Shown piece by piece: positions 36,700-63,670 of a stretch of 64,000 nt of DNA. The position numbers and the translations under genes were made by a program. The DNA comes from an uncultured Gammaproteobacteria bacterium (lineage in GTDB: Bacteria; Patescibacteriota; Patescibacteriia; UBA11705; JABHMO01), in assembly GCA_964434235.1 (NCBI GenBank), contig CAYSUN010000001.1, positions 18,574 to 82,573 of the forward strand, given 5' to 3'. Below the pieces are notes generated by a model. The model made no database searches and was not told the origin of the DNA. It worked only from the letters and a program-made list of their open reading frames with translations. Within the stretch, counting starts at the first letter, position 1; each line of letters starts with the position of its first letter.

Positions 36700-37012
36700 T
36701 AGATCGAAATTACATGAAAAATATTAATATCTAAAATTAACAGATATTATTTTGAAATACGGTCTTTGTTTTTGTATTTTCTGTTAATATTGTATAATAA
36801 TTATACTTTAGCGTCAAAAGCAAAAGTGGGTAAATACACAAGAAATCAAAAAACCAAGAAAACAAGAAAGCAAGAAAGTATGAAAGCAAATACTTAGCCT
36901 TTGTAAAGTATCTTAAGCTACCCTTTGTTTCTTAGTTTCTTATTTCTTTATTTCTTTATTTCTTTTTAACTCACTATTCATTACTTATTTACTTAACACT
37001 TAACTTAACTCT
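36700..37012. repeat. divergent promoter region rich in CAAGAAA/TTTCTTG and TACTTAACACTTAAC word repeats
   Basis: Same repeat vocabulary as the 9.3-10.0 kb block. Confidence 0.6.
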
Positions 37013-38125
37013 ATGAAAAAATTTATTTTGGTTTTGATTTTATGTTTGTTGGCTATTCCAGCTGTTACTTTAGCGGGTGGATCTTCAGATGAAAATGTTT
37101 TTATTCCAAAAGAACAAGTAATTTCTGATAATTATTTTGTTATTGGTAATACAGTTGATATTTCAGGTACATTAGAAAAAGATGCTTACATTATCGGACA
37201 AAATGTCGTAATTAGTGGAACTATTAAAGGTGATTTGATTGGCGTTGCTAACAGTTTAAGAATTGACGGAGTAGTTGAGGGTAATGTTCGATTTTTAGCT
37301 TCTGAAATGGATATCAAGGGTGAAGTTTATAAAAATATTACAGTTGCTTCTGGTAATTTAGTTGTTTTAGGCAAATTAAATCAAGATTTAATTGGAGCAG
37401 TTGGTTCTGCTGATTTACAAGGCGAAATGTTGGGGAATGTAAATCTTGTGGCTAGCAAAGTAAATGTGGATAAAAATATTGCTGGTAATTTATCATTACG
37501 TTTAGATGAAAATGGGACAATGTCTTTTGCTGAAGAAGTGGAAATTGGAGGAAATTTAGCTTATTCTCCAATTAAAAAGGAAGTTGAGGGTTTATCTGGA
37601 GTAACGGTTGTAGGAGAAACGAAGTTATTGAAAATAAATAAAAGTCTTAATATTAACAAAGCGTATAATTATATTTATTTATATAGTCGAATTGCTTATT
37701 TTTTATCTTTGTTGATGATAGTTTTAGTAATGTTAAGTTTCATGAAAAAATTTACTGTTCAGTTATCTTCACTTTTAGCCAAAGAACCACTTAGATGTTT
37801 TAATAAAGGTTTTTGGTTTGTAATTTTAGTTCCGCTTGTTTGTTTGCTCTTGTTGTTCACTTTGGTTGGTTTGCCATTGGCCGGGATACTTATGGCTTTG
37901 TATATTATAGTTTTTTATATTAGTAAAATTTTTGTTGGGTTAGCAGTTGGTATGGTTGTCTTGAAACAAGATTTTACAAAAGCAAAGTTAATTTGGCCAG
38001 CAGTGTTAGGTGTATTTTTAGTTGTAATTGGAGTTTCAATACCATTTATTGGTTTTCTGGTTAACTTATTGCTAACTTCCGCTGGGTTTGGAGCGCTTTA
38101 TATAATTTTGAAAAGGGAAAAGTAA
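37013..38125 (+). CDS. membrane protein with N-terminal signal, bactofilin-like beta-helical repeat region, and C-terminal multi-TM domain
   Basis: Repetitive G-x-hydrophobic pattern (GNTVDISGTLEKDAYIIGQNVVISGTIKGDLIGVANSLRIDGVVEGNV..) typical of DUF583/bactofilin-type beta-helix; ~5 TM helices in the C-terminal 150 aa. Confidence 0.4.
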   Translation: MKKFILVLILCLLAIPAVTLAGGSSDENVFIPKEQVISDNYFVIGNTVDISGTLEKDAYIIGQNVVISGTIKGDLIGVANSLRIDGVVEGNVRFLASEMDIKGEVYKNITVASGNLVVLGKLNQDLIGAVGSADLQGEMLGNVNLVASKVNVDKNIAGNLSLRLDENGTMSFAEEVEIGGNLAYSPIKKEVEGLSGVTVVGETKLLKINKSLNINKAYNYIYLYSRIAYFLSLLMIVLVMLSFMKKFTVQLSSLLAKEPLRCFNKGFWFVILVPLVCLLLLFTLVGLPLAGILMALYIIVFYISKIFVGLAVGMVVLKQDFTKAKLIWPAVLGVFLVVIGVSIPFIGFLVNLLLTSAGFGALYIILKREK

Positions 38126-38228
38126 AAAGTAAAGAAACAAACAGTGTTAAGTATTAAGTGTTAAGTATTAAGTATTAAGTAAATTTGTAATATTCGTAGA
38201 TTCGTAGCTAATTCGTAATTTGTAAACT

Positions 38229-39596
38229 ATGAACATAGATAAATCAATTTTCAAAGCTTATGACATTCGCGGAGTTTATCCTTCGCAAGTTAATAAGGAA
38301 ATGGCTTATAAATTAGGCCAATCTTTTGCTGAATTTATGAAAGTAGAGCTTCAAAAAGATAATTTGAAATTAGTTGTTGGGCAAGACATGAGATTGTCGT
38401 CTTCAGAATTATTTGAAGCTTTAACTGCTGGAATAACTGATCAAGGTGTTGATGTTGTCGATATTGGTTTAGTTTCAACTCCAACCTTTTATTTCGCAGT
38501 AGCTAAATTTGGTTATGATGGTGGAATTCAAGTTTCAGCTTCGCATAATCCTTCAGAATATAATGGATTTAAAATGGTTAGAGGCGGGGCAGTGCCGATT
38601 AGTGGAGATACTGGAATTTTGGAATTAGCCGTGTTGATGGCTGAGCAAGAGTTTGTGCCAACGGAAAATAAAGGCGTGATTGAAAAGCATGAAAATATTC
38701 TTGATGAGCATTTAGCTTATGCTTTGACTTGGGCTGATTTGTCAAAAATTAAACCACTGAAAATTGTAATTGATTCAGCTAATGCGATGGGCGGACCATT
38801 GTTTGAAAAACTTTTTGAAAAATTGCCTTGCGAAATTATAAAATTAAATTTTGATTTAGATGGAACTTTCCCAGCTCATGAAGCAGATCCACTAAAAGAT
38901 GAAAATAACAAACAATTACAAGACAAAGTTTTGGAAACCAAAGCTGATCTTGGAATTGCACTTGATGGTGATGGGGATAGAATATTTTTTATTGATAATA
39001 CAGGCAAAACGATTGAGCCAGCAATTATTAGGGGAATACTGTCACAAATATTTCTGGCCGATAACCCTGGAGCTACTATTTGCTATGATATACGGCCAGG
39101 CAAAATTACCATTGATATGATCGAAGAAGCTGGAGGTGTGCCAGTTGTCACAAGAGTTGGACATTCTTTGATAAAAGAAAAAGCTCGAGAAGTTGGAGCA
39201 GTTTTTGCCGGTGAATCAAGTGGACATTTTTTTGTAAAAATGCCTTTTGGTATTTTTGAAATGCCAATGATTGTAACTTTAAAATTGTTAGAAAAATTTT
39301 CTCAGTCAAATAAAACAGTGGCTGAGCAAGTCGCGCCACTGTATAAATATGCTCATTCAGGTGAAATAAATTTTTCTGTTGAAGACAAAGCAGAAGTATT
39401 TAATCTTTTGGAAGAAAGATATGGAGCTAATCTGATTTATGATTTTGATGGTTTAAGTTTTGAGTGGTCTGATTGGTGGTTTAATGTTCGACCATCAAAT
39501 ACAGAAAATAAAGTTCGCTTGAACTTGGAAGCAATATCAGAAGATATAATGAAAGAAAAGCGTGATGAGGTCTCGGACTTTATAAAATCAGCTTAA
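38229..39596 (+). CDS. phosphomannomutase/phosphoglucomutase
   Basis: Active-site loop SASHNPSEYNGFK, metal-binding ALDGDGDRIFF, sugar-binding GESSGH. Confidence 0.85.
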   Translation: MNIDKSIFKAYDIRGVYPSQVNKEMAYKLGQSFAEFMKVELQKDNLKLVVGQDMRLSSSELFEALTAGITDQGVDVVDIGLVSTPTFYFAVAKFGYDGGIQVSASHNPSEYNGFKMVRGGAVPISGDTGILELAVLMAEQEFVPTENKGVIEKHENILDEHLAYALTWADLSKIKPLKIVIDSANAMGGPLFEKLFEKLPCEIIKLNFDLDGTFPAHEADPLKDENNKQLQDKVLETKADLGIALDGDGDRIFFIDNTGKTIEPAIIRGILSQIFLADNPGATICYDIRPGKITIDMIEEAGGVPVVTRVGHSLIKEKAREVGAVFAGESSGHFFVKMPFGIFEMPMIVTLKLLEKFSQSNKTVAEQVAPLYKYAHSGEINFSVEDKAEVFNLLEERYGANLIYDFDGLSFEWSDWWFNVRPSNTENKVRLNLEAISEDIMKEKRDEVSDFIKSA

Positions 39597-39661
39597 GATA
39601 TTTTTAAACGTGAAAAGAGGCATCCTAGTGGGGATGCCTCTTGCTGTTGAAGGGGGAAAAC

Positions 39662-40447
39662 CTAGCGCTTTGCCGTTTTCTTTGATTCATAGGAAAGCCT
39701 TGAACTGAGCTTTCCCCTTGTTGCCATGGGAACAATTGCCAGAATCTTTTCCAACCGCGGATCCTCAATCGAGAAAATGTGCATTTCCTGATAAAGTGTT
39801 TCGGCGGCCGTGTCGATTCGATTGTTTTGAATCATGGCAAAAACCAATTCGTACATCCATGGGTCAGTGGAAGGGTTCCACTGTTCCAGGTCAAACAGCT
39901 CTCGCAGGTTGGAATATTCACCCTTTACGTCGAGGAGTTTTATTCCCCTCATCGCCTTGATTTGTTCGATTCTTTTCTTGGCATACCGCATTTCCATATT
40001 CAGGGGAATCCAGCCTTGTCCAATGTAGTCAGAAATGGTCCAGAGTTGTTCTTTCTTCATCGCGTAATCGTAGAATTCCATGATGAGCTGTTGCTTCTCT
40101 TTCTTTTCAGAACTTGAAAATCCAAAGCTCAAAAACGTATGAGCCTTGGTTGGTTGACCTTCCGCCAAAAAGTTTCTGAACGTCTGCATCTTAACATTTG
40201 AAAGTAAACTGAACTTCTCATTTCTGAAGTACGTACGCAGAGTTGCGGCATGCTCAAGAATGTAGTCATTCAATTCGAAGAATGCGTCCTTCGTTCTTTC
40301 TCCTTCAATTCCGTTAATTTTCAAAGTTGCGTATTCCAATGCAAGTTCACTGCATTCTTCAAAAACTTCTTCTTGCGTTTTGAAGCAACCGGAAAAGGTT
40401 GAAATCGACACTATCGCTACAATTACCAGAACCAATGCGTTCTTCAT
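39662..40447 (-). CDS. putative lipoprotein (GC-rich foreign island)
   Basis: Signal peptide with lipobox ISTFSGC; markedly higher GC than the flanking genes. Confidence 0.5.
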   Translation of the reverse strand: MKNALVLVIVAIVSISTFSGCFKTQEEVFEECSELALEYATLKINGIEGERTKDAFFELNDYILEHAATLRTYFRNEKFSLLSNVKMQTFRNFLAEGQPTKAHTFLSFGFSSSEKKEKQQLIMEFYDYAMKKEQLWTISDYIGQGWIPLNMEMRYAKKRIEQIKAMRGIKLLDVKGEYSNLRELFDLEQWNPSTDPWMYELVFAMIQNNRIDTAAETLYQEMHIFSIEDPRLEKILAIVPMATRGKLSSRLSYESKKTAKR

Positions 40448-40642
40448 GTGGGATCTCCTGTGAAAGGTTGAAAAATTATAAAATGAACTTCAAACTAATA
40501 GCAGTATAGCACATATTTATATTTTTGTCAACAGTAGCTTGTTTTGATTATGATTGGTCTTATATAAGTAAATAAAGATAGTTGTTTATTTTATGATTAT
40601 TTATGTGTAATTTTAGATTAATTTTTTGTTTATCTTATCGAT

Positions 40643-40671
40643 ATTGACATAATATAAAATATATGCTATAA
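40643..40671 (+). promoter_or_regulatory. sigma70-type promoter TTGACA-17bp-TATAAT
   Basis: cgatattgacataatataaaatatatgctataattacaag; a second TTGACA at ~40689 and the SD AGGAGA precede the ATG at 40720. Confidence 0.6.
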
Positions 40672-40719
40672 TTACAAGAATCTGTTTATTGACAATCTAC
40701 TAAAAAAAAGGAGAAAATC

Positions 40720-41133
40720 ATGAAAATGCGTATTGAGGATGCAATTGTAGCATTTGTTGAGGCAGTTCTGCCTCGTAGTAGCGTGGGGAAGGTTCTGCAT
40801 GTTTGTCTGAACTTGACCTACGAGCATGTGCTCGGGGAAGAGTACACTGTGAAGCAACTTGTTCCTGATGAAGGTTCGGAGTGGGACGTTGAGGAAAGGT
40901 ATTCTGATGAGTTGAGGTCTAGGACAATTGGTGATAAACAAGAGTGGTTAGTTGATATGCCAGTCAGTGCGGGTTTCGGGTTGGCTGGTTCTGGCATCAA
41001 GGTTTTGGATGGAAATATTCCGTACCTTGATCGTCATGATGAGATGGCTTGGCAGTACGAACTTCAGTTCGTGCCCTTGTCAGTTACAGCACAATTTCGA
41101 CAGCTCAAGCGGTCGAAGATCAAGTCAGCCTAG
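40720..41133 (+). CDS. hypothetical protein (GC-rich island)
   Basis: 137-aa ORF with strong SD (AAAAAGGAGAAAATCATG); ends ..KSA followed by a palindrome. Confidence 0.5.
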   Translation: MKMRIEDAIVAFVEAVLPRSSVGKVLHVCLNLTYEHVLGEEYTVKQLVPDEGSEWDVEERYSDELRSRTIGDKQEWLVDMPVSAGFGLAGSGIKVLDGNIPYLDRHDEMAWQYELQFVPLSVTAQFRQLKRSKIKSA

Positions 41134-41147
41134 GCTGACGAAGGAGG
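41124..41147 (+). promoter_or_regulatory. intercistronic palindrome + SD (GTCAGCCTAGGCTGAC GAAGGAGG), copy 1
   Basis: Perfect 16-bp palindrome immediately followed by a consensus SD; repeated at 41565-41587. Confidence 0.6.
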
Positions 41148-41151
41148 CAAG

Positions 41152-41574
41152 ATGTTTGCTTTTTTGACGTTCCTCATTACATTGGTTCTGCACCATTTCG
41201 TTATAAGGTATTGGGGTTGGGCAGAGATGGGGGATGTCTGGGTGTATGTGGCTTCTCTCGTTTCCTTCTTGGCCATGGTTGGACTGGCTATTGGGGTTGA
41301 GCTGATGAAGAGGGATTTAGCTGTGGTCGGAGCCTTTGGTAAGAAGATCCTTTCCGGATTCTTTGAGCTTGTCACAGCTGGAGTATTTCTCGCAATTCTG
41401 TTTGTACCCTTTTCCGTATGTCTTTTCCTGGCTGTAAAAGAAACAGGAACTATGACGGTCGGGATGTTTCTACTGGACTATTTGGGGTCAGGAGTTGTCT
41501 TCGTTGGTTCTGTTTTTGCAGGGAGGTTTTTTAGAGCCTTTTTCAAGAAGTTATACAACAGCAAGTCAGCCTAG
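41152..41574 (+). CDS. hypothetical 4-TM membrane protein (GC-rich island)
   Basis: Four hydrophobic helices; ends ..SKSA then the second palindrome+SD copy. Confidence 0.5.
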   Translation: MFAFLTFLITLVLHHFVIRYWGWAEMGDVWVYVASLVSFLAMVGLAIGVELMKRDLAVVGAFGKKILSGFFELVTAGVFLAILFVPFSVCLFLAVKETGTMTVGMFLLDYLGSGVVFVGSVFAGRFFRAFFKKLYNSKSA

Positions 41575-41587
41575 CTGACGAAGGAGG
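41565..41587 (+). promoter_or_regulatory. intercistronic palindrome + SD, copy 2, followed by a 4-codon remnant ORF (ATGATGAAGATTTAA)
   Basis: GTCAGCCTAGCTGAC GAAGGAGG; the downstream cistron appears truncated. Confidence 0.55.
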
Positions 41588-41623
41588 ACGGATGATGAAG
41601 ATTTAAGCTTACATGAAAAATCA

Positions 41624-41661
41624 CCCCGTCACCACCATGTGGTCGACGGGGTTTTGTTTTT
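41624..41661 (+). terminator. rho-independent terminator
   Basis: Hairpin CCCCGTCACCACCATGTGGTCGACGGGG followed by TTTTGTTTTT. Confidence 0.7.
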
Positions 41662-41744
41662 AAATAAAAGAAGATGAATCCTAGACCAGAAATTCAAAAG
41701 ATTATCAGCGAAGTTCAAGCAAATCATACTTAGTGAACATAAAG

Positions 41745-41777
41745 TCCACCACTGCCAAGTAGTTGGTGGATTTTTTT
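41745..41777 (+). terminator. rho-independent terminator
   Basis: Hairpin TCCACCACTGCCAAGTAGTTGGTGGA followed by T7. Confidence 0.65.
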
Positions 41778-41833
41778 GTGTATTTTGAGTATAATATTGA
41801 AGAATTATATGTTTTGTAAATTAATATTTTATT

Positions 41834-42715
41834 ATGATTGGTATTTTTGACAGTGGGCTTGGCGGTCTGACAGTTCTAAAAGAAATTCGAAAGGTTTTGC
41901 CTGCGTATGATTACATGTATCTTGGTGATACTTTACATTTACCTTATGGCAATAGAAGTGATGAGGCTATTTTTGAATTAAGTCGCCGAGCTTGTGATTA
42001 TTTGTTTTCGCAAGGTTGTAAATTAATTATAATTGCTTGTAATACTGCCAGTGCCAAGGCTTTACGAAAACTTCAGCAAGAGTATTTGCCGGCCGTTAAT
42101 TTGCAGATTTCTCCACTACTCCTTCGACAAGCTCAGGATTCGGTCGAAATGACAAATAAGAATATACTTGGTGTAGTACGGCCAGTGGCGGAAAAAATTG
42201 CGAAACTCGGATATGAAAAAATCGGTATGATTGGAACAAAGGGAACTGTTAATTCAAATATTTATGTGCTAGAATTAAAAGAGCAAATGATTAAAGAACA
42301 AAGGAGTAGCGAGGCTGAATTTAAGATTAGTGTAGAACAACAAGCCACTCCACTTTTGGTACCATTGATTGAAGAGGGTTGGCTTAATGAACCAGAAACA
42401 GAATCTATTTTATCAAAATATTTAAAACCCTTGCAGGAAAAAGGTGTGCAATGTTTAATTTTGGGTTGTACACATTATCCACTTTTAATTAAAAAAATAA
42501 AAAAAATTCTTGGGCCGAGTTGTTATGTACCCAATCCAAGTGAAATAGTAGCGGAATCTTTGAAAGATTATTTGATTAAACATTCTGAACTTGAAAAAAA
42601 ATTACCAAAAAATGGGCGTGTTAGTTATTTTGTAACTGATTTGAATGATAATTTTCGTCAAGTGGCTGAGGCTTTATTCGGTGAGAAAATTAAGATAACC
42701 AAAGTAAAATATTAA
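41834..42715 (+). CDS. murI: glutamate racemase
   Basis: IGIFDSGLGGLTVL, IIACNTAS and LGCTHYPLL motifs (both catalytic Cys contexts present). Confidence 0.85.
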   Translation: MIGIFDSGLGGLTVLKEIRKVLPAYDYMYLGDTLHLPYGNRSDEAIFELSRRACDYLFSQGCKLIIIACNTASAKALRKLQQEYLPAVNLQISPLLLRQAQDSVEMTNKNILGVVRPVAEKIAKLGYEKIGMIGTKGTVNSNIYVLELKEQMIKEQRSSEAEFKISVEQQATPLLVPLIEEGWLNEPETESILSKYLKPLQEKGVQCLILGCTHYPLLIKKIKKILGPSCYVPNPSEIVAESLKDYLIKHSELEKKLPKNGRVSYFVTDLNDNFRQVAEALFGEKIKITKVKY

Positions 42716-42847
42716 GAATAATTTTGCTTTAAACTTTTATATAATTAAAATTCTAAACATTTAAATAAAAATCATAAAAATAAAACTATAAAACTTCCAG
42801 CACTTTATAATTTGAATCGATAAAATGTCGGAATAAAAATTAGATCT

Positions 42848-44011
42848 ATGCTTACATTAATTATTTTTTTAGCGATTTTAGGTGTAATGGTATTTTTTCA
42901 TGAACTTGGTCATTTTTGGGTTGCCCGAAAATTTGGTGTAAAAACTGATGAGTTTGGTTTTGGTTTTCCACCAAGAATTTGTGGTTGGAGAAAAATTAAA
43001 GGTAAAAGAAAGTTTTTTTGGGGGAATGAAGATGCTGAAAAAATAGAATCAGAAGACACAATATATTCTTTGAATTGGATTCCAATAGGCGGATTTGTAA
43101 AAATAAAAGGTGAAGATGGTGAAGCTAAAAAAGAGCCTGATAGTTTTGGTAGTAAAAAAGTTTGGCAAAGAATCGCAATTTTGAGTGCTGGAGTTACTAT
43201 GAATCTTCTTTTGGCTTTAGTTTGTTTGATTATTGCTTTTATGATTGGCGCACCTCAGGTTGTTGATCAAGATTTAGCTTCTGCTAAAGTTGAGAATCCT
43301 AAAATTCAAATAATGAGTGTTTTGCAAGGTTCACCTGCGGAAAATGTGGGAATTCAAATGGGTGATGTTGTTTTATCTATTAATGATCAAACTTTTACAG
43401 AAGTTGTGCCTTTGCAAAATTTTATTAATGAAAATGAAGAGCAGGAACTGTTTTTTAAAGTTCAAAGACTTGATGAAGAAAAAGAGTTTACAGTTCAAGC
43501 TGAAATGCTTGCACAAATGCAGGAAGTGGGCGTGGGCATTGGTTTAGCGAAAACTGGGATAGTTTCTTATCCTTGGTATAAATCAATTTGGCTTGGTTTC
43601 ATGGCAACTGTATCTATGTTTGTGCAAATAATAGTTGCTTTTTATACTTTGATAAAAAATTCAATTATTGGACAACCTTTGGGAGTTGATTTGGCTGGAC
43701 CGATTGGCATTGCTGTTATGACTGGCCAAGTGGCGCGTATGGGGTTTGTTTATATTTTACAGTTTGCAGCTTTGTTATCATTGAATTTAGCTATAATTAA
43801 CTTTTTACCGTTCCCAGCCCTTGATGGCGGACGAGTATTATTTTTAATCATTGAGAAAATTAGAGGCAAGGCAGTTAATCAGAAAGTTGAACAAATAGTT
43901 CACGCTTCAGGCTTTGCTTTGTTAATGTTTTTAGTGATAATAGTAACGGGTAAAGATTTATTTAGATTTAAGGATTTCTTCATTAATTTATGGCAGACCA
44001 TATTTTCATAA
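42848..44011 (+). CDS. rseP: RIP metalloprotease RseP (site-2 protease, M50 family)
   Basis: HELGHFW zinc motif in TM1, PDZ domain, LNLAIINFLPFPALDGG motif. Confidence 0.85.
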   Translation: MLTLIIFLAILGVMVFFHELGHFWVARKFGVKTDEFGFGFPPRICGWRKIKGKRKFFWGNEDAEKIESEDTIYSLNWIPIGGFVKIKGEDGEAKKEPDSFGSKKVWQRIAILSAGVTMNLLLALVCLIIAFMIGAPQVVDQDLASAKVENPKIQIMSVLQGSPAENVGIQMGDVVLSINDQTFTEVVPLQNFINENEEQELFFKVQRLDEEKEFTVQAEMLAQMQEVGVGIGLAKTGIVSYPWYKSIWLGFMATVSMFVQIIVAFYTLIKNSIIGQPLGVDLAGPIGIAVMTGQVARMGFVYILQFAALLSLNLAIINFLPFPALDGGRVLFLIIEKIRGKAVNQKVEQIVHASGFALLMFLVIIVTGKDLFRFKDFFINLWQTIFS

Positions 44012-45048
44012 ATCAAGCAGAGATAATGCCAACGAATAGAGATTCTTCGCTAGACGACGAGAACTCTAGATTTATCGAATCTGAAAATTTAGAGCAAATT
44101 GCTAGTCTTGCTTTAGAAAAAAGGATTAAGTTAGATAATTTTTTTGATTTATCAAAATATCCAATTATTGAGAACGATTTTTTGCACAAGAAAAAAGATT
44201 TATATCAAATTGAGGATACTGATATTGTTATTCAAAGAGCTGAATTGAAAGCTCAGTTAGTCGAGATAAAAAGACGCTTACTTGAAGATTCAGATTTGAA
44301 CTTGTCTGAAAAACAAAAATTAGAAGCAGAAAAAGAAAGCTTTCAAAAAAAAGTTTCTAATTTACAAGTTCAATCGACTGGTACAATGCAAGGTTATGCA
44401 GAATTAGCCACAAGAAAAAAAAATCGATTAAGAACGAATTGGGTTAATTATGTGTTGGGAGAGGTTCAGATTATTGCAGATATTTTCTCTAAAGAAAACA
44501 TAGCTGGACAATATCACTTTGAGGATTTGCAGGCTGTTGTTTTAGCTTTTAAAGCTAAGATGGATGAATATTTAGTTCGTGAAGCCCAACTTAAAAGCGC
44601 TTTGACTGGTTTGCAAGAAATCGACCAAACAAAAGCAAAACAAGACTTGGCTTTGTTGGAATCCGAACTTAAAAATGTTTATTCAGCTAAAAAAGATTTT
44701 ATTTTGCAGGGTATGAATTCTTTGCATTTTGTAGCTACTCAAATGTTGGAAGTTTTGCGAAATGATATCGAGCAAGGTGAAATAAGAAGAAAGTTTACTT
44801 CAGGAAATCTTAATTTAGATAGTGTGTTTGACATTATAAATAATCATGAACCGCAAGCAATTATCGAACAAGTAAGGGCCATGCTTTTAGCAGATTATGA
44901 TAATGCGAATTGGCGGAAATTTATAAATATATATTTAAATAGCTTAGATTTAAGTGATTCTACGGCTGTACAAAAAAAAATAAATTCTTTATTAAACATT
45001 TTAACTGTGGTAACTTATGCCGATGAAAAAAAACAAAAAGCGAATTAA
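43990..45048 (+). CDS. hypothetical coiled-coil protein
   Basis: 352-aa ORF overlapping the rseP 3' end by 22 nt; no motif recognised. Confidence 0.45.
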   Translation: MADHIFINQAEIMPTNRDSSLDDENSRFIESENLEQIASLALEKRIKLDNFFDLSKYPIIENDFLHKKKDLYQIEDTDIVIQRAELKAQLVEIKRRLLEDSDLNLSEKQKLEAEKESFQKKVSNLQVQSTGTMQGYAELATRKKNRLRTNWVNYVLGEVQIIADIFSKENIAGQYHFEDLQAVVLAFKAKMDEYLVREAQLKSALTGLQEIDQTKAKQDLALLESELKNVYSAKKDFILQGMNSLHFVATQMLEVLRNDIEQGEIRRKFTSGNLNLDSVFDIINNHEPQAIIEQVRAMLLADYDNANWRKFINIYLNSLDLSDSTAVQKKINSLLNILTVVTYADEKKQKAN

Positions 45049-45769
45049 GTTTAATCTAATTGGAATAATTTTAGTGTTCCTTTTAGCAGTTTTTGTTTTT
45101 GTTTTGCTTTTTGTTAGTTACATGTATCAAGATTTAAAAAGTGTTCAGCAAGGAGTTTTTAATTTAACGGAGGAAGTTAAAATTACCAATGACAAAATTG
45201 ATCAATTTTCAATTACAGATGAACAAACAGCTCAAAAATCATTAAAGTTTACTGAAGCAACTAAAAAGTGGGATATTTATCAAAATAGTGAATACAAATT
45301 CCAATTTAAAAATCCGTTACCTTGGGGTAGCTTTAGCTTGTTAGCTAGTTATAATGAAGGAGATCATGAACCGTCTTCAGTCCAAGGTTTATTTGCTGGT
45401 GCTAGTAAATCTGAAGCCTTGAGCTTAGTTTTGATTGATTATGATAAGTTTCAAGGTGTTAATTATGCAAGTCATGAAGTAGAGCAATATTTAGTACAAA
45501 GCAGTTTAGGTGAATGTAATATAGAAATTTTTGCCGCTTTAAAAAAATTGAATTTAGGCGAAATTCGTAATTGTTTTGTGCGAGAAAATATTTTAAATCA
45601 AAAATACCTTGTATATCGTTATTACAAAGATTACGATGTGTTTGGCGCAGCTAAAAATAATTTGGTTATGGTTTATCCTCGTGAAAATTTTTATGTTTAT
45701 AGTTTCTTGAAAGATGATGTTTCAGCTGAAGTGGATTATTTTATCCAGAGTTTAGTTTTCATGCATTAA
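45017..45769 (+). CDS. hypothetical membrane-anchored protein
   Basis: N-terminal TM (LIGIILVFLLAVFVFVLLFVSYMY), then a soluble domain. Confidence 0.45.
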   Translation: MPMKKNKKRIKFNLIGIILVFLLAVFVFVLLFVSYMYQDLKSVQQGVFNLTEEVKITNDKIDQFSITDEQTAQKSLKFTEATKKWDIYQNSEYKFQFKNPLPWGSFSLLASYNEGDHEPSSVQGLFAGASKSEALSLVLIDYDKFQGVNYASHEVEQYLVQSSLGECNIEIFAALKKLNLGEIRNCFVRENILNQKYLVYRYYKDYDVFGAAKNNLVMVYPRENFYVYSFLKDDVSAEVDYFIQSLVFMH

Positions 45770-45779
45770 AAAAAATGGT

Positions 45780-45925
45780 ACAATGATTTTGCATAAAAAC
45801 TAATTACGAATCAGCTACTAATCTACAAATTACAAATTACGAATCAGCTACTAATCTACAAATTTACGGATTGAAAATTTAAAATAAAAAATACAAATTT
45901 AAAATAAAAAATAAAAATTGCAAAT
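45780..45925. repeat. tandem ~30-bp repeat TTACGAATCAGCTACTAATCTACAAATTACAAA (x2) plus AAATTTAAAATAAAAAATA (x2)
   Basis: Exact tandem duplication; related copies at 38190-38228 and 56993-57110. Confidence 0.75.
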
Positions 45926-47819: not shown

Positions 47820-47918
47820 GTGGAAAATAAGGAAAAACAAGTAACAAGGGGAAACAAGAAGCAAGGGAAAAAAAGGAACAGGAAAACAAAGAACAAGAAA
47901 AAATAAATAACAAGGAAT

Positions 47919-48269
47919 ATGCAGACATATGATTTAACTGAAAGAATGTTTAGGTTTGCCAGAGATATTCGTTGTTTAGTAAATTCCTTACCAAAAAAGA
48001 CCACAAATTTTGAAGATGGACGTCAAGTTGTTCGATCTTCTGGCTCTGTTGGCGCGAATTATATAGAAGCGTCAGAACCATTGGGATTCAAAGATGAATT
48101 GCACAAGCTGAAAATTTCAAGGAAAGAAGTTAAAGAGACGATTTATTGGTTGAAGTTGATTATGTCTCAAAATAATATTGAATTACTGACGGATATTTCT
48201 AAGCTAATTGATGAAGCAACGCAAATATTAAAAATTTTATCAACTATTATTAAAAAGTTACAAGACTAA
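47919..48269 (+). CDS. four-helix-bundle protein (23S rRNA intervening-sequence protein family)
   Basis: FRFARDIRCLVNSLPKK...VRSSGSVGANYIEA...EVKETIYWLKL is characteristic of the TIGR02436-type family. Confidence 0.65.
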   Translation: MQTYDLTERMFRFARDIRCLVNSLPKKTTNFEDGRQVVRSSGSVGANYIEASEPLGFKDELHKLKISRKEVKETIYWLKLIMSQNNIELLTDISKLIDEATQILKILSTIIKKLQD

Positions 48270-48311
48270 TTTTTTTGAATCTTGGTACTTAATTATTGTT
48301 GCTTATAGATT

Positions 48312-49100
48312 ATGTTTTTCTATTTATTACTATTTATTATTGGAGCTTGTGTGGGAAGTTTTTTGAATGTTGTTATTCTTCGCTTGCCACAAAAAAAGTC
48401 AATTGTTAAAGAAAGTTCGCACTGCCCAAATTGCCAAAAGAAATTGAAAGCTTATGATTTGATTCCAGTTATTAGTTTTTTTCTTTTGGGAGCAAAGTGC
48501 CGGAATTGTCAAAAGAAAATTTCTTGGCAATATCCAATTGTTGAATTAGTTTGTGCTGGTTTATTTATTTTTTTGGGCTATCATTATCAAATTTTGACTA
48601 ATTTTGCTAATCCAATTTTTTATCGGGATTTAGTTTTTGTTTCTACTTTGTTAATAATATTTGTGACTGATTTAAAATATTATTTGATTTTTGATGCGGT
48701 GACAGTTCCTCTTATGATTTTTGCTTTTTTGATTAATTTTTTCATACTAAGTAATTCAAATAACTATTGGTCAGTTTTTATAAATTTAATTGTGTCGGCT
48801 GTTATTGGCGGTGGTTTCTTTTTACTTCAATACATTGTGTCCAAAGGTAAATGGATTGGTGGTGGAGATATCCGTTTGGGTTTTTTAATGGGATTTATGC
48901 TCGGCTGGCCAATGATTTTAGTTGCTTTAGTTATCGCCTATTTAGTAGGAGCAATTATCAGTATATTTTTAGTAATTGGTAAAAAGAAAAAAATGAAAAG
49001 TGAAGTTCCTTTTGGTGTGTTTCTCAGTTTCGCTACATTTGTAGTTTTGATTTGGGGTAACCAGATTTTGAATTGGTATTTAACGCAATTGGGGATTTAA
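48312..49100 (+). CDS. pilD: prepilin peptidase (A24 family, PilD-like)
   Basis: N-terminal tetra-Cys CPNC..CRNC zinc motif, catalytic Asp contexts (FVTDLKYYLIFD; GGGDIRLGF), 6-8 TM. Confidence 0.85.
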   Translation: MFFYLLLFIIGACVGSFLNVVILRLPQKKSIVKESSHCPNCQKKLKAYDLIPVISFFLLGAKCRNCQKKISWQYPIVELVCAGLFIFLGYHYQILTNFANPIFYRDLVFVSTLLIIFVTDLKYYLIFDAVTVPLMIFAFLINFFILSNSNNYWSVFINLIVSAVIGGGFFLLQYIVSKGKWIGGGDIRLGFLMGFMLGWPMILVALVIAYLVGAIISIFLVIGKKKKMKSEVPFGVFLSFATFVVLIWGNQILNWYLTQLGI

Positions 49101-49365
49101 AGTGTTGAGTGAAAAAAAGTTAAAAGGCTTGCCCTGAACTTAACGTCTTATAGCGTTATAGTTCGGGGTAAAAGTTAAAAGTAAGTGTTAAGCCTGCCTG
49201 CCGGCAGGCAGGTATTAAGTAATAAATTTTTCTTGTTACTCGTTACTTGAATCCTTCTTTTCCTTGTTTTCTTGTTTTTATGTTTTATTGATTTCTTGTT
49301 TTAGTGGTTAAGTGTTAAAATGATTTCTTGATTTGTTGTTTTCTTGTTTTCTTGATTAAAAATGT
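49101..49365. repeat. inverted copy of the 9.3-10.0 kb repeat unit plus the collapsed palindrome CCTGCCTGCCGGCAGGCAGG
   Basis: 49232-49315 is nearly exactly the reverse complement of 9345-9421; palindrome at 49193-49212. Confidence 0.8.
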
Positions 49366-49884
49366 ATGCGCGGATTTAGTTTAATTGAACTTATGATTTC
49401 TATAGCCATTGTTGGGTTAATAACTTCAATGGGAGTTTTAAGTTTTTCTGGACATAACGACAGAAAGAATTTTGACAATAGTATTAAGCTTTTAGAACAA
49501 AAAATTATTGAAACAAAAATATCTGCTTTAGCTGGGCAATTAGATAATAATGAATCAACTCCGATGTATGGGCTTCAGCTCGGTCAGAATAAAAAAGAAT
49601 ATTTTACATATTTTGATATAAATGGCAATTGCCAATTTGATAATGGTGAAACTATCAAAGAAACAGTAACTTTGCCAGATCAAGTTGAATTTATTTCTTC
49701 TTCGGTAAATGGTTTTTGTTTTCAGAGAGATTCAAGTGTGGACCATGTTTGTGCTTTTGGTGGTAATTGTAGTTTTGTTGGAAATTATACCTTATATTTA
49801 CAAGCACTTAAAATAAAAAAAGGCGCCAGTCTTAGCCTTAATAGTGAATCTGGTAATGTTAGTCTTGAACAGTTTGATTTATGA
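49366..49884 (+). CDS. type IV pilin-like protein (prepilin N-terminal cleavage/methylation motif)
   Basis: MRG|FSLIELMISIAIVGLITSM: Gly, conserved Glu at position +5, hydrophobic helix. Confidence 0.7.
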   Translation: MRGFSLIELMISIAIVGLITSMGVLSFSGHNDRKNFDNSIKLLEQKIIETKISALAGQLDNNESTPMYGLQLGQNKKEYFTYFDINGNCQFDNGETIKETVTLPDQVEFISSSVNGFCFQRDSSVDHVCAFGGNCSFVGNYTLYLQALKIKKGASLSLNSESGNVSLEQFDL

Positions 49885-56067: not shown

Positions 56068-56110
56068 AATTTAATATTAAAAACAAAAATTTAAGGAGTG
56101 AACAAATATT

Positions 56111-56992: not shown

Positions 56993-57110
56993 TTACAAAT
57001 TACGAATTGGCTACGAATCTACGTATTACGAATAGGAAAAACAAATTTACAAATATTACGAATTACACTTTACTAATTACCAATTACTCTTTACTAAATA
57101 TTCGCCTGTG
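56993..57110. repeat. TTACGAAT-type word repeats (TTACAAATTACGAATTGGCTACGAATCTACGTATTACGAATAGG..)
   Basis: Related to 45800-45870 and 38190-38228. Confidence 0.6.
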
Positions 57111-57126
57111 TTAATTTACTTATAAT

Positions 57127-59145
57127 ATGAATATAACTGAATCGAAAAATCGTTTGGAGAAATTAAAAGATCAGCTTCGAGAGACTGATCACGCTTATTA
57201 TACTTTGGATAAGCCGATTATGTCTGATTCAGCAAGAGATAGTTTGAAAGATGAAATTGAAAAAATCGAGAAACAGTTTCCAAATTTAATTACTTCAGAT
57301 TCACCAACTCAGAGAATCGGTGGTCGAGCTTTGGGTCGATTCAAAAAAGTTAAACATGAAATTCCTAAATATTCTTTAGATGATGTTTTTAGTTATGAAG
57401 AAGTTCGCGAATTTGATGAACGAGTAAAAAGATTTTTGAAAATTCCGATTAACTCAGACCTAGAATATACTTGCGAATTGAAAATTGATGGTTTGAATAT
57501 GTCTTTTCATTATAAAGATGGTTTATTTGAACGAGCAGTTACTCGAGGTGATGGTGTGCTTGGCGAGGACGTTTCTCATACTGTTAAGACGATTAAAAGT
57601 TTACCTTTGAAATTAAATAAAAATGTTGATATTGAACTTGGTGGTGAAGTTTATATGCCAACCAAAAGTTTTGAAAAGTTAAACAAAAAAGGCCCAATTC
57701 AATTTGCTAATCCGAGAAATGCGGCCGCTGGTACGGTGCGCCAATTAGATCCAATGGTGGCTGCTTCTCGAGATTTAGATATTTTTTGTTGGGCTATCTA
57801 TAAGTTAAAAGTTAAAAGTGAAAAGTTAAAAGTAAATACTCAGGTTGAAATGCTTGAAAAAATGAAAGAGCTTGGATTTAAAGTTAATCCAGAATACAAA
57901 AAAGTAAATAATATTGAAGAAGCAATTAAATTCTGTGAAAGTTGGCAAGACAAAAGAGCTAAACTTCCTTATGAAATTGATGGAATTGCGATCAAGGTAA
58001 ATCGAATTGATTGGCAAGAACGATTAGGCCGAGCATCAAAATATGTTCGCTGGGCTACAGCTTATAAATTTCCAGCCGAAGAAGCGACTTCTGTAATTGA
58101 AAATATTGTTTGGCAAGTTGGTCGAACTGGCGCCTTGACTCCAGTTGCTCATTTAACGCCAGTTAGTTTAGCTGGGTCGATTGTCAGTCGGGCAACTTTG
58201 CATAATATTGATGAATTAAGAGAAAAAGATATTAGAATAGGCGACACAGTAATTTTGCATAAAGCTGGAGATATTATTCCAGAAATTATTAAACCATTAC
58301 TCAAATTAAGAACTGGAAAACAAAAAAAAGTGGAAGCACCAAAAAATTGTCCGATTTGTCAGGCGAAAGTTGAAAGGATGGATGGTGAGTCAGCAATTCG
58401 TTGTACAAATAAAAATTGTTTTGCTCAAGATCAAGAAAGATTAATTCATTTTGTTTCGCGTAAAGGTTTTGATATTGATGGTTTTGGAGAAAAAATTGTT
58501 GAACAATTAATGCTGGAAAAGTTGGTTACAAATTTTTGTGATATTTTCGAACTTAAAAAAGGTGACTTGCAAGTGCTAGATCGTTTTGCGGAAAAATCAG
58601 CTGAAAATTTAGTTCAAGCTATTGAAAAAAGCAAATCTGTTTTGTTAAGTAAATTAATTTTTGCTTTAGGCATTCGTTATGTAGGCGAAGAAAATGCTAG
58701 CTTACTAGCCAAACAATATTCCGATCGAACAATTTCTATGTTTTTAAAAAACATTAAGCAAGCAAAAGTTACTGATTTGGAAGAAATTGAAGGTGTTGGT
58801 AAAATTGTTGCTCAAGCAGTTTTTGATTATTTTCACAATGAAGATAATTTACAAAAACTATTAAAACTTGAAGAACTTGGTGTTGTTTTGAAAAGAGTAG
58901 AAGTTTCACAAGTAAAATCCTCAGTCTTTGGAAAAACTTTTGTTTTAACTGGTAGTTTAGTCAGTTTATCCAGAGATGAAGCCAAGGCTTTGATTAAATT
59001 AGCTGGAGGTAAAGTTAGCTCGACTGTGAGTGCTAAAACTGATTACCTTGTTGTTGGTGATGAACCGGGTTCTAAATACAAAAAAGCAGTAGAATTAAAA
59101 GTGAAAATACTTGAAGAAAAAGAATTCATGAGTTTGATTAAATAA
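57127..59145 (+). CDS. ligA: NAD-dependent DNA ligase LigA
   Basis: Adenylation motif CELKIDGL, OB fold, Zn finger CPICQAKVERMDGESAIRCTNKNC, HhH, C-terminal BRCT (GKTFVLTGSL..); contains an in-frame repeat-derived insert at ~57795-57840. Confidence 0.9.
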   Translation: MNITESKNRLEKLKDQLRETDHAYYTLDKPIMSDSARDSLKDEIEKIEKQFPNLITSDSPTQRIGGRALGRFKKVKHEIPKYSLDDVFSYEEVREFDERVKRFLKIPINSDLEYTCELKIDGLNMSFHYKDGLFERAVTRGDGVLGEDVSHTVKTIKSLPLKLNKNVDIELGGEVYMPTKSFEKLNKKGPIQFANPRNAAAGTVRQLDPMVAASRDLDIFCWAIYKLKVKSEKLKVNTQVEMLEKMKELGFKVNPEYKKVNNIEEAIKFCESWQDKRAKLPYEIDGIAIKVNRIDWQERLGRASKYVRWATAYKFPAEEATSVIENIVWQVGRTGALTPVAHLTPVSLAGSIVSRATLHNIDELREKDIRIGDTVILHKAGDIIPEIIKPLLKLRTGKQKKVEAPKNCPICQAKVERMDGESAIRCTNKNCFAQDQERLIHFVSRKGFDIDGFGEKIVEQLMLEKLVTNFCDIFELKKGDLQVLDRFAEKSAENLVQAIEKSKSVLLSKLIFALGIRYVGEENASLLAKQYSDRTISMFLKNIKQAKVTDLEEIEGVGKIVAQAVFDYFHNEDNLQKLLKLEELGVVLKRVEVSQVKSSVFGKTFVLTGSLVSLSRDEAKALIKLAGGKVSSTVSAKTDYLVVGDEPGSKYKKAVELKVKILEEKEFMSLIK

Positions 59146-59259: not shown

Positions 59260-59397
59260 ATGACGAAACTACTTTTTCCTGCGAAGTTTTTTGGTGAGAA
59301 GGTATTGGCTGTAGGTTTAGCTGGAATTCTTGCTGTTGCATTTGTTGTTGTTTACTGTGGGGTTGCTGTTAATGCTGGGGTTGATAAGTATTTGTAA
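59260..59397 (+). CDS. possible small hydrophobic peptide (45 aa, MTKLLFPAKFFGEKVLAVGLAGILAVAFVVVYCGVAVNAGVDKYL)
   Basis: SD-like AAAGGGGAACGCT upstream of the ATG; single TM; followed by a hairpin + T-rich stretch at ~59406-59435; below the ORF-track size cutoff. Confidence 0.3.
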   Translation: MTKLLFPAKFFGEKVLAVGLAGILAVAFVVVYCGVAVNAGVDKYL

Positions 59398-59473
59398 ATT
59401 AACTATCCTCGTTTCTTAAACGGGGATTTTTATTGCCTTTTAAGTAGAATTTTGTTATAATTTCTGTGAATTT

Positions 59474-59764
59474 ATGAATATAAACAAAGAACATATTGAG
59501 CATTTAGCCAATTTGGCTAGATTGGGTATAACGGAAGAAGAAAAAGAGAAATACGCTGAGCAGATTTCTTCTGTTTTAGATTATTTTACTGAATTGAATG
59601 AATTAAACACTGACAACGTTGAACCTTTAACGCATGTTTTTGAATTGGAAAATGTTGTCCGTCCAGACAAAGAAGTTCGCACCGTAGAAGCGGATAAAGT
59701 TTTGGCCGAAGCACCAGAATTAGAAAAAAAACAAGTTAAAGTTAAGGCTGTTTTTGATAAGTAA
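59474..59764 (+). CDS. gatC: Asp/Glu-tRNA amidotransferase subunit C
   Basis: N-terminus IEHLANLARLGITEEEKEKYAEQISSVLDYF typical of GatC; directly upstream of gatA. Confidence 0.8.
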   Translation: MNINKEHIEHLANLARLGITEEEKEKYAEQISSVLDYFTELNELNTDNVEPLTHVFELENVVRPDKEVRTVEADKVLAEAPELEKKQVKVKAVFDK

Positions 59765-59921
59765 TGTAATTTCACAGTTTATTGTTTATTGCTTATTTAT
59801 TTTTTACTCACGACCCGCCTACCGGCCGGCTCACAACTTAATTCTTACCTACTTAACACTTAATACTTAATACTTATTTACTCACCATTAACACGTTAAA
59901 TATGGACGCAGGTATGTTATT

Positions 59922-61340: not shown

Positions 61341-61366
61341 ATGATTTAATAATAAGTTTCACCAAT

Positions 61367-61813: not shown

Positions 61814-61814
61814 T

Positions 61815-63020: not shown

Positions 63021-63034
63021 AATTAAAAATAAAA

Positions 63035-63553
63035 ATGAAAAAGTATTTTGTAGTTTTTACCTGTTTATTTGTTTTGTTACTTAGCCCAGCTTTGGCTAAG
63101 CAAAGTTATAATTTAACTTTGGGTGAGGCTTATATTAAATATAATCAAATCGGTTGGCAGAATTATGAATTTTATGTAATTACTGATTTGGAAAATAAAG
63201 ATGGCTTAACTTATGAATGGACGTTTGATAATAAATCCTCGTTTTCATCAGAAAAAGTAAGGTATTTTTTTGCCAAAGGCGAACATACTATAAAATTAAA
63301 AGTTGAAGATAACTATGGTAATGTTCGTTACGATACAGTTCGTTTGAATATTCAGTTTTGGTCGTTGAAAAATAATTGGTTTTGGTGGGTGGCGTATTTA
63401 ATAGTTGTGATGTTAATTATCTATTATTGGGCGGCCAAAATAATGTATTTACTTAATCGACCGAAAATAAGTAAAGAAGCAAGATACTTTTTGGACTTAC
63501 TGGATGAACATGGCTGGATTGATGAAATTATAAAACATCACGCAAAAAAATAA
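63035..63553 (+). CDS. small PKD-like domain surface protein, paralogue of the C-terminal part of the upstream gene
   Basis: Signal peptide; YEWTFDNKSSF..HTIKLKVEDNYGN; C-terminal TM WFWWVAYLIVVMLIIYYW. Confidence 0.55.
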   Translation: MKKYFVVFTCLFVLLLSPALAKQSYNLTLGEAYIKYNQIGWQNYEFYVITDLENKDGLTYEWTFDNKSSFSSEKVRYFFAKGEHTIKLKVEDNYGNVRYDTVRLNIQFWSLKNNWFWWVAYLIVVMLIIYYWAAKIMYLLNRPKISKEARYFLDLLDEHGWIDEIIKHHAKK

Positions 63554-63554
63554 A

Positions 63555-63670
63555 TAAGTTGAAAGTAAAAAGTTAAAGGTTTATATAGAGAAAAATTATG
63601 TAAAAGTTAAATAGTTCAGATTGTCTTGGTAGTTTAACTTTATAAACTTGTAACTTGTAACTTTTCCCAA
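63555..63670. repeat. AAAGTTAAA / AACTTGTAACTT word-repeat region
   Basis: Shares AACTTGTAACTTTT with 9960-9980 and AAAGTTAAAAG with the ligA insert. Confidence 0.55.

Follow-up and report, generated by a model that had tools for sequence, protein, structure and literature searches.

A dispersed family of heptamer and octamer arrays in the spacers of an uncultured bacterium, and its association with IVS-protein and GxxExxY genes

Introduction

Heptamer repeats have been catalogued in bacteria since 1990, as short tandemly repeated repetitive (STRR) sequences, long simple-sequence repeats (LSSR), TAACTGA repeats or GGGAATC repeats, without an origin or a function. The STRR heptamers of heterocystous cyanobacteria reportedly go back to Mazel in 1990, and LSSR, with units of 5-11 nucleotides (nt), are said to go back to Mrazek in 2007. 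The multi-word heptamers 5' of recF and recO in Nostoc belong to the same repeat class. Heptamers are also found with the intervening sequences (IVSs) of rRNA genes: in Coxiella, RNase III cuts the terminal inverted repeats of the 23S IVS, whose loop contains an S23p open reading frame (ORF) preceded by tandem GACAGAT heptamers in strain-dependent number (PMC4990558). Here we analyzed a 64-kb stretch of DNA from an uncultured bacterium (contig CAYSUN010000001.1, positions 18,574 to 82,573), called the window below, in which an initial annotation had noticed AT-rich words recurring in the spacers in front of many genes, with short GC-rich palindromes beside several of them. It had proposed that these were shared promoter or untranslated-region (UTR) modules, or else a family of mobile miniature elements. 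We report that the words are units of tandem arrays, and that comparable arrays adjoin two kinds of small gene, those of IVS proteins (S23p) and of GxxExxY proteins.

Results

Short words form tandem arrays

All the sequences quoted in the initial annotation were found at the coordinates given there, and the ORF starts that it named (37013, 38229, 45926, 47919, 57127, 59922, and 9983) are correct. The spacers do share a small vocabulary used in both orientations. The words themselves were thus rightly recognized, but they are not free: they are tandem units of 7-8 nt, in about six families. Four of these families have a simple unit, namely A (CAAGAAAA, period 8), C (ACTTAAY, period 7), D (AACTTTT, period 7), and F (CATAGAA, period 7); family E has the unit TTACGAAT / CTACGAAT (period 8), and family B comprises the GC-rich hairpins B1-B5, which are not tandem. 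Each word family occupies 3-8 sites in the window, and further contigs of this population carry more copies.

Repeats were detected with Tandem Repeats Finder (TRF), and the 36 spacers of the window were compared with shuffled controls preserving dinucleotides. TRF arrays of period 7-8 were found in every named spacer (3-16 copies, unit matches of 65-90%). Self-matching was strong at period 7 (z=14.3) and at period 8 (z=7.8), and 159 12-mers were common to at least two spacers when 23 +/- 7.5 were expected (20 against 0.4 for at least three spacers). Single words gave the same picture: CTTAACACTTAA was found at 16 sites with at most one mismatch (1.2 +/- 1.1 in shuffles), CAAGAAAACAAG at nine sites (1.4 in shuffles), and TTACGAATCAGCTAC at five sites with at most three mismatches (1.3 in shuffles). 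For most tested words the density in spacers was 7-90x that in coding DNA, the exception being AACTTTTAAC, which showed no enrichment. The enrichment test suggested by the annotation was thus run, and the words exceed what base composition predicts. The arrays are more than low-complexity DNA and, being tandem with units of about 7 nt at many loci, they are intergenic heptamer repeats of the STRR/LSSR class.

The exact tandem that had been reported in 45780-45925 corresponds to a TRF array at 45802-45864 (period 33, 1.9 copies, 100% identical). Two other statements needed correction. Arrays are present in the spacers named within the range first proposed (36700-63670), but the richest spacer, 9335-9982 (648 nt), lies outside it; and the description as intergenic fits most arrays but not one, which lies inside the ligA coding sequence (57802-57836). 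This ligA array is in frame, in a linker whose length varies among LigA homologues. At 29846-29884, a T-rich array resembling A words encodes a lysine-rich linker after the zinc finger of RadA.

Words and hairpins are combined into larger modules. A core of about 95 nt (A-core; AACACTTAATCA..AAAACAAGAA..CAAGGAAAAGAARGATYCAAGTAACAAGAAAAATTTAATACTTAATACT) has three copies in the window, two on the plus strand (9333-9424 and 9735-9815) and one on the minus strand (49229-49327), and a metagenome scan detected it on four more contigs of the same population, which makes at least seven copies in both orientations with pairwise matches of 84% to 98.7%. C and D words come after the A-core, with or without the B1 palindrome. 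The GC-rich palindromes of the initial annotation are present, as CCTGCCTGCCGG...CAGGCAGG at 9581-9619, 9820-9858, and 49193-49212, and as CGCCTACCGGCCGGC at 59816-59830. B1 is an imperfect palindrome found at least four times; a CTAC (GTAG in reverse complement) stands before it at two of these places, 9579 and 9817, but neither at 49212 nor in L097, and CTAC is also part of B5 at 59816. The GC hairpins vary independently of the A-core: B1 accompanies the window copy at 49193 and is absent from another A-core locus (L098). Hairpin B3 is 98% identical at two loci. Direct repeats of 18 nt surround the 126-nt insert at 9501-9626, and direct repeats of 11 nt surround B3; either pair may reflect insertion into a tandem array.

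With Rfam 15 at gathering thresholds, the whole window gave three tRNAs only, and no rRNA. Scans of 9300-10000 and 49050-49400 at E<=1 returned nothing credible (a chance tmRNA fragment had E=0.15). A CRISPR array was rejected, the 7-8-mers being contiguous and without spacers, and no parent insertion sequence that would fit a miniature inverted-repeat transposable element was found.

Arrays adjoin IVS-protein and GxxExxY genes

The IVS-protein gene of the window follows an A-word array (Table 1). We looked at seven IVS-protein loci retrieved blind, with no prior view of their flanks, four metagenomic (two Patescibacteria, one unclassified bacterium, and one Salinimicrobium) and three on annotated plasmids (Pseudanabaena, Planktothrix, and Bernardetia). 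An array of period 6-9 was present in 14/14 spacers adjoining the IVS-protein gene as compared with 1/10 other spacers of the same loci (Fisher p=7.6e-6), and the contrast holds between spacers of similar length. In most blind loci, the flanking arrays are inverted complements of each other, for instance ACAAAGAGCAAATAAC / TTTGCTCTTTGTTATTTG in L105, CCAAATT / TTGGAATTTGG in L107, ATTAGTG x15 / TCACTAA in L113, and AATCCCC-AATCGTA / TACGATTT in L112. Inverted complementarity of the flanks had a median of 36 for cargo genes and 15.5 for 52 other genes (Mann-Whitney p=8e-5); scores were 33-89 in relatives and other phyla, 51 in L088, and 49-54 in L112 and L113.

Two relatives with kept synteny (L088/L089 and L090/L091, LigA 72% identical) were compared with the window, the conserved order being GAPDH-peptidase-pilins-EamA-LigA...GatC-GatA-PKD-holin (GAPDH, glyceraldehyde-3-phosphate dehydrogenase). 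In L090 nearly every array is one half of an inverted pair, and its segment 9927-10000 folds with -28.4 kcal/mol (z=-4.6). The two best single-gene inverted flanks of L090 belong to an IVS-protein gene (PF05635) and to a GxxExxY gene (PF13366/TIGR04256). GxxExxY genes are found at three junctions, gatC/gatA in L090, acetyl-CoA synthetase/MurJ in L108, and GAPDH/peptidase in L109, and at all three they have one inverted set of 8-mers, TACGTGAT/TACATGAT/CTACTGAT ... ATCAGTAG/ATCACGTA. Related words, TACTGAT ... ATCAGTA, form a hairpin without a gene in L088 (8734-8811), and the window has gene-less hairpins of its own at 36838-36965 and 63554-63670.

The GAPDH/peptidase junction brings these forms together: it holds the IVS-protein gene in the window, a GxxExxY gene in L109, a 50-nt hairpin in L088, and unrelated arrays in L090, the IVS-protein gene being found at this junction in none of L088, L090, and L109. 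The distance between ACAAGTAACAAG and CTTGGTACTT is 13 nt in the gene-less hairpin of L088 versus 432 nt in the window, where it encloses the rest of the left-arm array and the whole gene. This one junction is thus seen both filled and empty.

Dense pairs of inverted heptamer arrays with genome-specific words, such as GAGTGAC/GAACTCC and GGCTTAA/TTAAGCC, were also detected in loci retrieved with a GatA query, whose best matches are 58-60% identical and without synteny: L020 (Thermodesulfovibrionales), L039 (a Patescibacteria, 50% GC), and L050 and L057 (Syntrophales). About 60 Firmicutes and other loci obtained with the same query have almost no arrays. In the array-rich loci of Thermodesulfovibrionales and Syntrophales, tblastn detected neither an IVS-protein nor a GxxExxY gene, which indicates that arrays also occur far from such genes. 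Genes lying inside distant inverted arrays of the window (C words around 37013-38125, E words around 38229-45769) were considered and rejected as chance-like, with few arrays and mixed orientations. No literature tying PF05635 or GxxExxY genes to heptamer arrays as a whole was found, in a search whose coverage is incomplete and which leaves novelty unproven; the link of the arrays to IVS-type gene cassettes appears new.

In two of the plasmids, the four-helix-bundle genes with heptamer arms are located inside defence operons (L111, Pseudanabaena plasmid NZ_CP112878.1; L112, Planktothrix plasmid NZ_LR882964.1). One insertion site is between csx2 and cas1, and the other has the DISARM helicase drmD on one side and an MmeI-type enzyme on the opposite side.

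Arrays are kept within the population and replaced between lineages

In contigs of other metagenomes with identical flanking proteins, the spacers were identical or differed by single-nucleotide polymorphisms (SNPs) only, once by five SNPs in about 640 nt. Three of the six gatC contigs end within C words, as expected of a multi-copy repeat, and short-read assemblies break precisely there. Comparing spacer presence and absence among strains, as the initial annotation had suggested, thus showed SNPs only in strain-level contigs, and turnover only in the syntenic relatives, whose junctions are empty or re-worded. The gatC/gatA spacer is 157 nt in the window, 20 nt in L088, and consists in L090 of 52 nt, the GxxExxY gene, and another 52 nt; between peptidase and pilin, there are 265 nt in the window, 1 nt in L088 as in L109, and 55 nt in L090. 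The vocabulary of the relatives is largely different (ACTGTTA, AAAAGTC, TACTGAT, and GTCATTT), and only CAAGAAA/TTTCTTG and AAAGTTAAAAG are common to them and the window. Likewise, the leader between the genes of 250 and 248 amino acids (window 45770-45925, L090 3525-3594) has in each case a -10 box followed by arrays, and the words differ. Since the spacers differ where gene order is kept, the arrays are lineage-specific, dispensable for their neighbours, and fast in turnover. They are stable within the population.

Next to ligA, the relatives have GC-rich, apparently structured spacers (L088 9691-10000, 310 nt; L090 12670-13126, 457 nt). Rfam gave no match in L088 or L090, and these spacers may be unannotated RNAs.

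Arrays lie in leaders and between cistrons

A scan with a generic promoter consensus was uninformative in this AT-rich DNA (52 found, 54 expected), and a scan for TG-extended -10 boxes was more useful, this box being clear in the promoters of the genome. In both word spacers having such a box, TGTATAAT near 36790 (by sequence) and TGGTACAAT at 45776, the box is upstream of the arrays, which are therefore part of the 5' leader. On the gene strand, no promoter-like or terminator-like site was found in 9335-9982, 49101-49365, 56993-57126, 59765-59921, or 63554-63674; these word spacers lie between genes that are adjacent in relatives and are therefore intercistronic. An ordinary spacer, the one before gatC, has no words and carries a terminator (59405-59427) and a TG-extended promoter (59433-59461). 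The gatC gene appears nearly leaderless, its -10 box ending at 59461 and its ATG being at 59474, just downstream of this clean intrinsic terminator. The UTR proposed by the annotation is supported as regards location only.

A 42-nt module containing GTATAAT occurs at 18297-18338 and 19905-19946 (90% identical) before the genes at 18395 and 20071. In contrast to the word arrays, it is a genuine shared promoter-like module.

Hairpin-type spacers fold better than their shuffles (z=-2.0 to -5.2, the lowest at 49101-49250). Arrays in a single orientation are unstructured, with a minimum free energy of 0 at 47820-47918 and z=+2.1, less structured than shuffles, at 38126-38228. A single long hairpin for the whole composite was rejected: z was only -1.4 to -3.8 and the strands were alike, giving no evidence of a strand-specific RNA.

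Feature map and host

The features are collected in Table 1.

Table 1. Repeat modules and associated gene in the window (window coordinates; z, fold score against shuffled sequence).
Feature	Position	Strand	Evidence
A-core copy 1 (CAAGAAAA-type 8-mers)	9333-9424	+	92 nt, 90% complementary to 49236-49327; aligned to 6 other copies
F words, GGAACAC / CATAGAA heptamers	9426-9482	+	TRF period 7 and 14; recur at 9692-9719
126-nt GC-rich insert (9501-9626) with hairpins B4 (9501-9566) and B1 (9581-9619)	9483-9644	unset	18-nt direct repeat 9483-9500 / 9627-9644; fold z=-2.4; no Rfam match
GTTTAAT / ACTTAAT / CATAGAA heptamer arrays	9640-9727	+	TRF
A-core copy 2	9735-9815	+	98.7% identity over 78 nt with locus L098
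B1 GC hairpin, long form, tip of composite element	9820-9858	unset	Pattern match, fold
C words (ACTTAAY) and D words (AACTTTT) reaching ATG 9983	9859-9982	+	TRF 9869-9981, period 7, 16 copies
A words, forward 36838-36889 and reverse 36923-36965: imperfect hairpin, 5' leader of gene 37013	36838-36965		TRF 36839-36889, period 8, CAAGAAAG x6.4; TRF 36923-36965; -22.7 kcal/mol, z=-2.0
C words touching ATG 37013	36985-37012	+	Sequence
D, C, and E words reversed (AAAAGTA; GTTAAGT x5.6; ATTCGTAG x3), from gene 37013-38125 to phosphomannomutase gene	38118-38225	-	TRF 38143-38181, period 7, x5.6, 90%; TRF 38192-38207, ATTCGTAG x2; inverted matches
E words (33-nt unit x1.9, 100% identical), then A-rich 20/27-nt repeats; leader of gene 45926	45802-45925	+	TRF
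A-word array, left arm of IVS-protein cassette	47820-47918	+	TRF 47825-47915; ACAAGTAACAAG at 47837
Four-helix-bundle / 23S rRNA IVS (S23p) protein gene	47919-48269	+	PF05635 E=1.4e-15; TIGR02436 81 bits
Short right-arm remnant CTTGGTACTT...TTGTTGCTT	48270-48311	-	CTTGGTACTT at 48281 = L088 position 1251
Composite element reversed: D words, B3 (49126-49169), D/C words, B1 short palindrome (49193-49212), A-core (49229-49327), A words to 49360	49101-49365	-	Inverted match, fold; identical in two other contigs
E words and 21-nt repeat 5' of ligA	56993-57110	+	TRF 57055-57097
D-word array AAGTTAA x4.6 within ligA, encoding KLKVKSEKLKV	57802-57836	-	TRF period 7, 92%; 94% complementary to 9951-9981
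gatC/gatA spacer: GTTTATT heptamers, GC-rich palindrome B5 (59816-59830), C words	59777-59876	+	TRF 59836-59876, period 7; identical in 6 other contigs
Hairpin of D words (63554-63585 reverse, 63640-63665 forward) 5' of holin-family gene 63675	63554-63670	unset	-22.3 kcal/mol, z=-2.2; TRF 63645-63663

The window has a GC content of 32%, and its genes are densely packed and mostly on the plus strand. Genes typical of the candidate phyla radiation are present (a type IV secretion system (T4SS)-like cluster, type IV pilins, prepilin peptidase, GatCAB, LigA, GAPDH, and PKD-domain proteins), and numerous ORFs have no Pfam match. The nearest named homologues of LigA, at 72% identity, are from Candidatus Falkowbacteria and Kuenenbacteria, and the host is a Patescibacteria resembling Falkowbacteria/Kuenenbacteria. 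The T4SS-like cluster (289-9334, with a PrgI-family protein at 6232 and a VirB4/TraG-like ATPase at 7427) ends right at the biggest repeat spacer.

Two tRNA-Ser genes (17724-17813 and 17997-18086) each have their own 3' end recopied almost exactly 70-130 nt downstream (region 17724-18235), the copy being AATCCCTCCCTCTCCGCCA for the first gene and ATCCCACTCTC(A)CTCCGCC for the second, with GGAGCAA(A)GCGACG before each. The arrangement looks like a small insert of the same style as that at 9501-9626, GC-rich and with a direct repeat, here of 19 nt. Another direct repeat, of 44 nt (27403-27446 / 28658-28701, 93% identical), is located at the 3' ends of two minus-strand genes and has no kinship to the word families.

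Discussion

The arrays and the small GC-rich hairpins are a dispersed modular repeat family in transcribed non-coding gaps. As for what they are, we lean slightly toward selfish or near-neutral DNA, that is, arms of IVS-like cassettes together with gene-less remnants of such cassettes, in transcribed spacers. A cassette would consist of two arrays, usually inverted, around a loop which is either empty or occupied by an S23p/IVS gene or by a GxxExxY gene (PD-(D/E)XK fold). New copies would arise by insertion or recombination into existing arrays, the arrays would lengthen by replication slippage, and small genes would enter or leave the hairpin loops. The only obvious nuclease candidate is the GxxExxY protein, and the GC hairpins might be moved by the RAYT-like (REP-associated tyrosine transposase-like; REP, repetitive extragenic palindromic) proteins of the relatives. 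Inverted pairs would give long imperfect RNA stems, possible substrates of RNase III as in rRNA IVSs, and such cutting would make the insert harmless. With one complementary base lacking, single-orientation arrays would remain unstructured and so be compatible with initiation free of a Shine-Dalgarno motif, a motif that about 4/5 of the ORFs in the window do not have. The mobile miniature elements of the initial annotation are thereby retained in substance, given the dispersed core of about 95 nt, the independent GC hairpins, the junctions of relatives that are empty or carry other words, and the mobile-looking neighbour genes; a transposase, defined ends, and insertion polymorphism within the population were not demonstrated.

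Several observations weigh against the cassette reading. No change in unit number or length, and no presence/absence change, was detected among 2-6 independent contigs for three spacers, which leaves ongoing mobility hypothetical. No mobility enzyme was identified, a tblastn search that used both RAYT-like proteins found in the relatives having detected no RAYT or transposase in the 64-kb window. Most arrays of the window are in a single orientation and form no hairpin, the fold z-scores of the AT-rich stems are modest, and the right arm is weak (score 17) at the IVS-protein gene of the window itself. A GxxExxY locus of 47% GC (L110) is without arrays. The IVS-protein association comes from the seven blind loci and three loci of this lineage, and in array-rich genomes genes could settle into pre-existing arrays.

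The main rival, which we regard as unlikely, is that the arrays are cis-acting translational or post-transcriptional signals, either unstructured landing pads or targets of an RNA-binding protein, ahead of genes devoid of a Shine-Dalgarno motif. Such a role in translation was proposed for the TAACTGA repeats of Beggiatoaceae (PMC4679880) and for heptamers of Nostoc (bioRxiv 10.1101/2022.06.06.494920). Here, arrays touch the starts at 9983, 37013, 38229, 47919, 49366, 57127, and 63675, whose genes mostly have no Shine-Dalgarno motif, the single-orientation arrays are unusually unstructured, and the leader of the 250-aa/248-aa gene pair keeps a -10 box and arrays in both the window and L090 while the words differ. 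However, a Shine-Dalgarno-like motif is found in only about 1/5 of the ORFs whether or not arrays stand in front. The words run both ways relative to the downstream gene, some arrays follow stop codons or lie within ligA itself, and the orthologous genes of relatives manage with spacers of 1-20 nt.

A little more doubtful still is that the arrays are local, microsatellite-like products of slippage without any mobility, and that the link with genes only reflects genes settling in the longest spacers. In many bacteria, no long simple-sequence repeat is commoner than the heptamer, which is put down to polymerase slippage (Mrazek 2007, as cited in PMC4679880 and PMC4692102). The exact 33-nt tandem duplication at 45802-45864 agrees with this, as does the abundance of heptamer arrays in the unrelated GatA loci (Thermodesulfovibrionales, Syntrophales, and another Patescibacteria). 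Slippage does not, however, account for composites 78-216 nt long that share 84-99% identity between distant loci and occur in both orientations, for identical GC hairpins within different arrays, for conserved word arms with GxxExxY genes at three junctions, or for the 14/14 versus 1/10 contrast at similar spacer length.

It is improbable that the family is of the REP/REPIN type (REPIN, REP doublet forming a hairpin), with GC hairpins moved by a RAYT and the AT-rich words being only their landing ground. The repeated B1 palindrome, with CTAC at two of its four copies (9579 and 9817), the CTAC within B5, and hairpins varying independently of the words would suit it, and RAYT-like genes are present in L090 (12073-12669, 78.3 bits for an NF047646 cutoff of 80) and in L088 (20466-21041, 56 bits). 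Against it, the tag is absent in the other two B1 copies, B2, B3, and B4 are unrelated to B1 in sequence, no RAYT was found in the window, and the explanation would at most cover the GC modules when arrays are the bulk of the repeat DNA. Finally, the shared promoter modules of the initial annotation, or phase-variable contingency switches, are barely credible: the arrays are tandem and upstream of many genes, but they contain no -35/-10 sites, real -10 boxes are upstream of them, several are between genes contiguous in relatives, and their units are degenerate (65-90%) with no copy-number change among the strain-level contigs (2-6 contigs, three spacers). The arrays are not promoters, and their neighbours need none of them.

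If we return to cassettes, a wider form of this reading can be put forward, more tentatively: the arrays could be arms of a widespread and so far undescribed class of tiny mobile cassettes akin to 23S-rRNA IVSs, with an S23p or a GxxExxY gene, that home into the loops of gene-less array hairpins in transcribed spacers. If this were true, heptamer repeats (of cyanobacteria, Bacteroidota, Beggiatoaceae, and Patescibacteria) and rRNA IVSs would both be manifestations of a single element family, and the four-helix-bundle protein would possibly be the missing repeat-binding factor. The small-sample link to two small multi-copy families (PF05635/TIGR02436 and PF13366/TIGR04256) in Patescibacteria, Bacteroidota, and Cyanobacteriota, mostly with inverted arms, gives a testable hypothesis tying the repeats to rRNA intervening sequences, with named candidate proteins. 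If the link merely reflects where small genes can settle, the window would be a clear but ordinary case of repeat-rich spacers. Patescibacteria are usually described as streamlined. The prominence of the heptamer phenomenon in such a reduced genome is unexpected.

Relation to described repeats

With STRR and LSSR, as these are cited in PMC4692102 and PMC4679880, the arrays share tandem 7-nt units, several families per genome, an intergenic or in-operon location, and many loci. They differ from both by their Patescibacteria host, AT-richness, 8-mers mixed with 7-mers, units degenerate rather than near-perfect, and composites with GC hairpins. The TAACTGA repeats of marine Beggiatoaceae, cyanobacteria, and Bacteroidetes (MacGregor 2015, PMC4679880) are similarly located directly 5' of start codons without a ribosome-binding site, with some copies in ORFs and a patchy distribution. 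That system has one dominant word, mostly forward, whereas about six words, facing either way, are used here, many of them behind genes or as inverted pairs; the units ACTTAAY, AACTTTT, CAAGAAAA, TTACGAAT, and CATAGAA are not of the TAACTGA type. The GGGAATC / GGGGA(T/C)T repeats of Xanthomonas and Nostoc (PMC4692102) are also intergenic, with some convergent inverted pairs, and are conserved in position and variable in length and sequence between close species. They are G-rich and form quadruplexes, whereas the present words are AT-rich without G-runs.

REP/REPIN elements with their RAYT (PMC3116915) are comparable in having short GC-rich palindromes in spacers, nested in other repeats, and in the RAYT-like genes of the relatives. 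They are set apart by the inconsistent tags, by the fact that no RAYT was found in the window, and by the minor share of repeat DNA that palindromes make up here. The GC palindromes also recall the small dispersed repeats of Nostoc, reportedly described by Elhai in 2008. Rickettsia palindromic elements measure 100-150 nt and are an intergenic-family repeat that is also found in frame inside conserved genes. The ligA insert is a heptamer array of 35 nt, and the likeness is in the in-frame copy in a conserved gene, here in a linker.

As regards the 23S IVSs with an S23p ORF of Leptospira and Coxiella, these are inserted in helix 9, 25 or 45 of the 23S rRNA, whereas the elements of the window are located between protein-coding genes, have arms made of word arrays, and are in many cases gene-less; excision by RNase III could occur here by analogy. 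The two have in common an inverted-repeat stem with a PF05635 gene in the loop, clear in the relatives and other phyla and weaker at the window's own gene, as well as heptamers upstream and the behaviour of selfish DNA.

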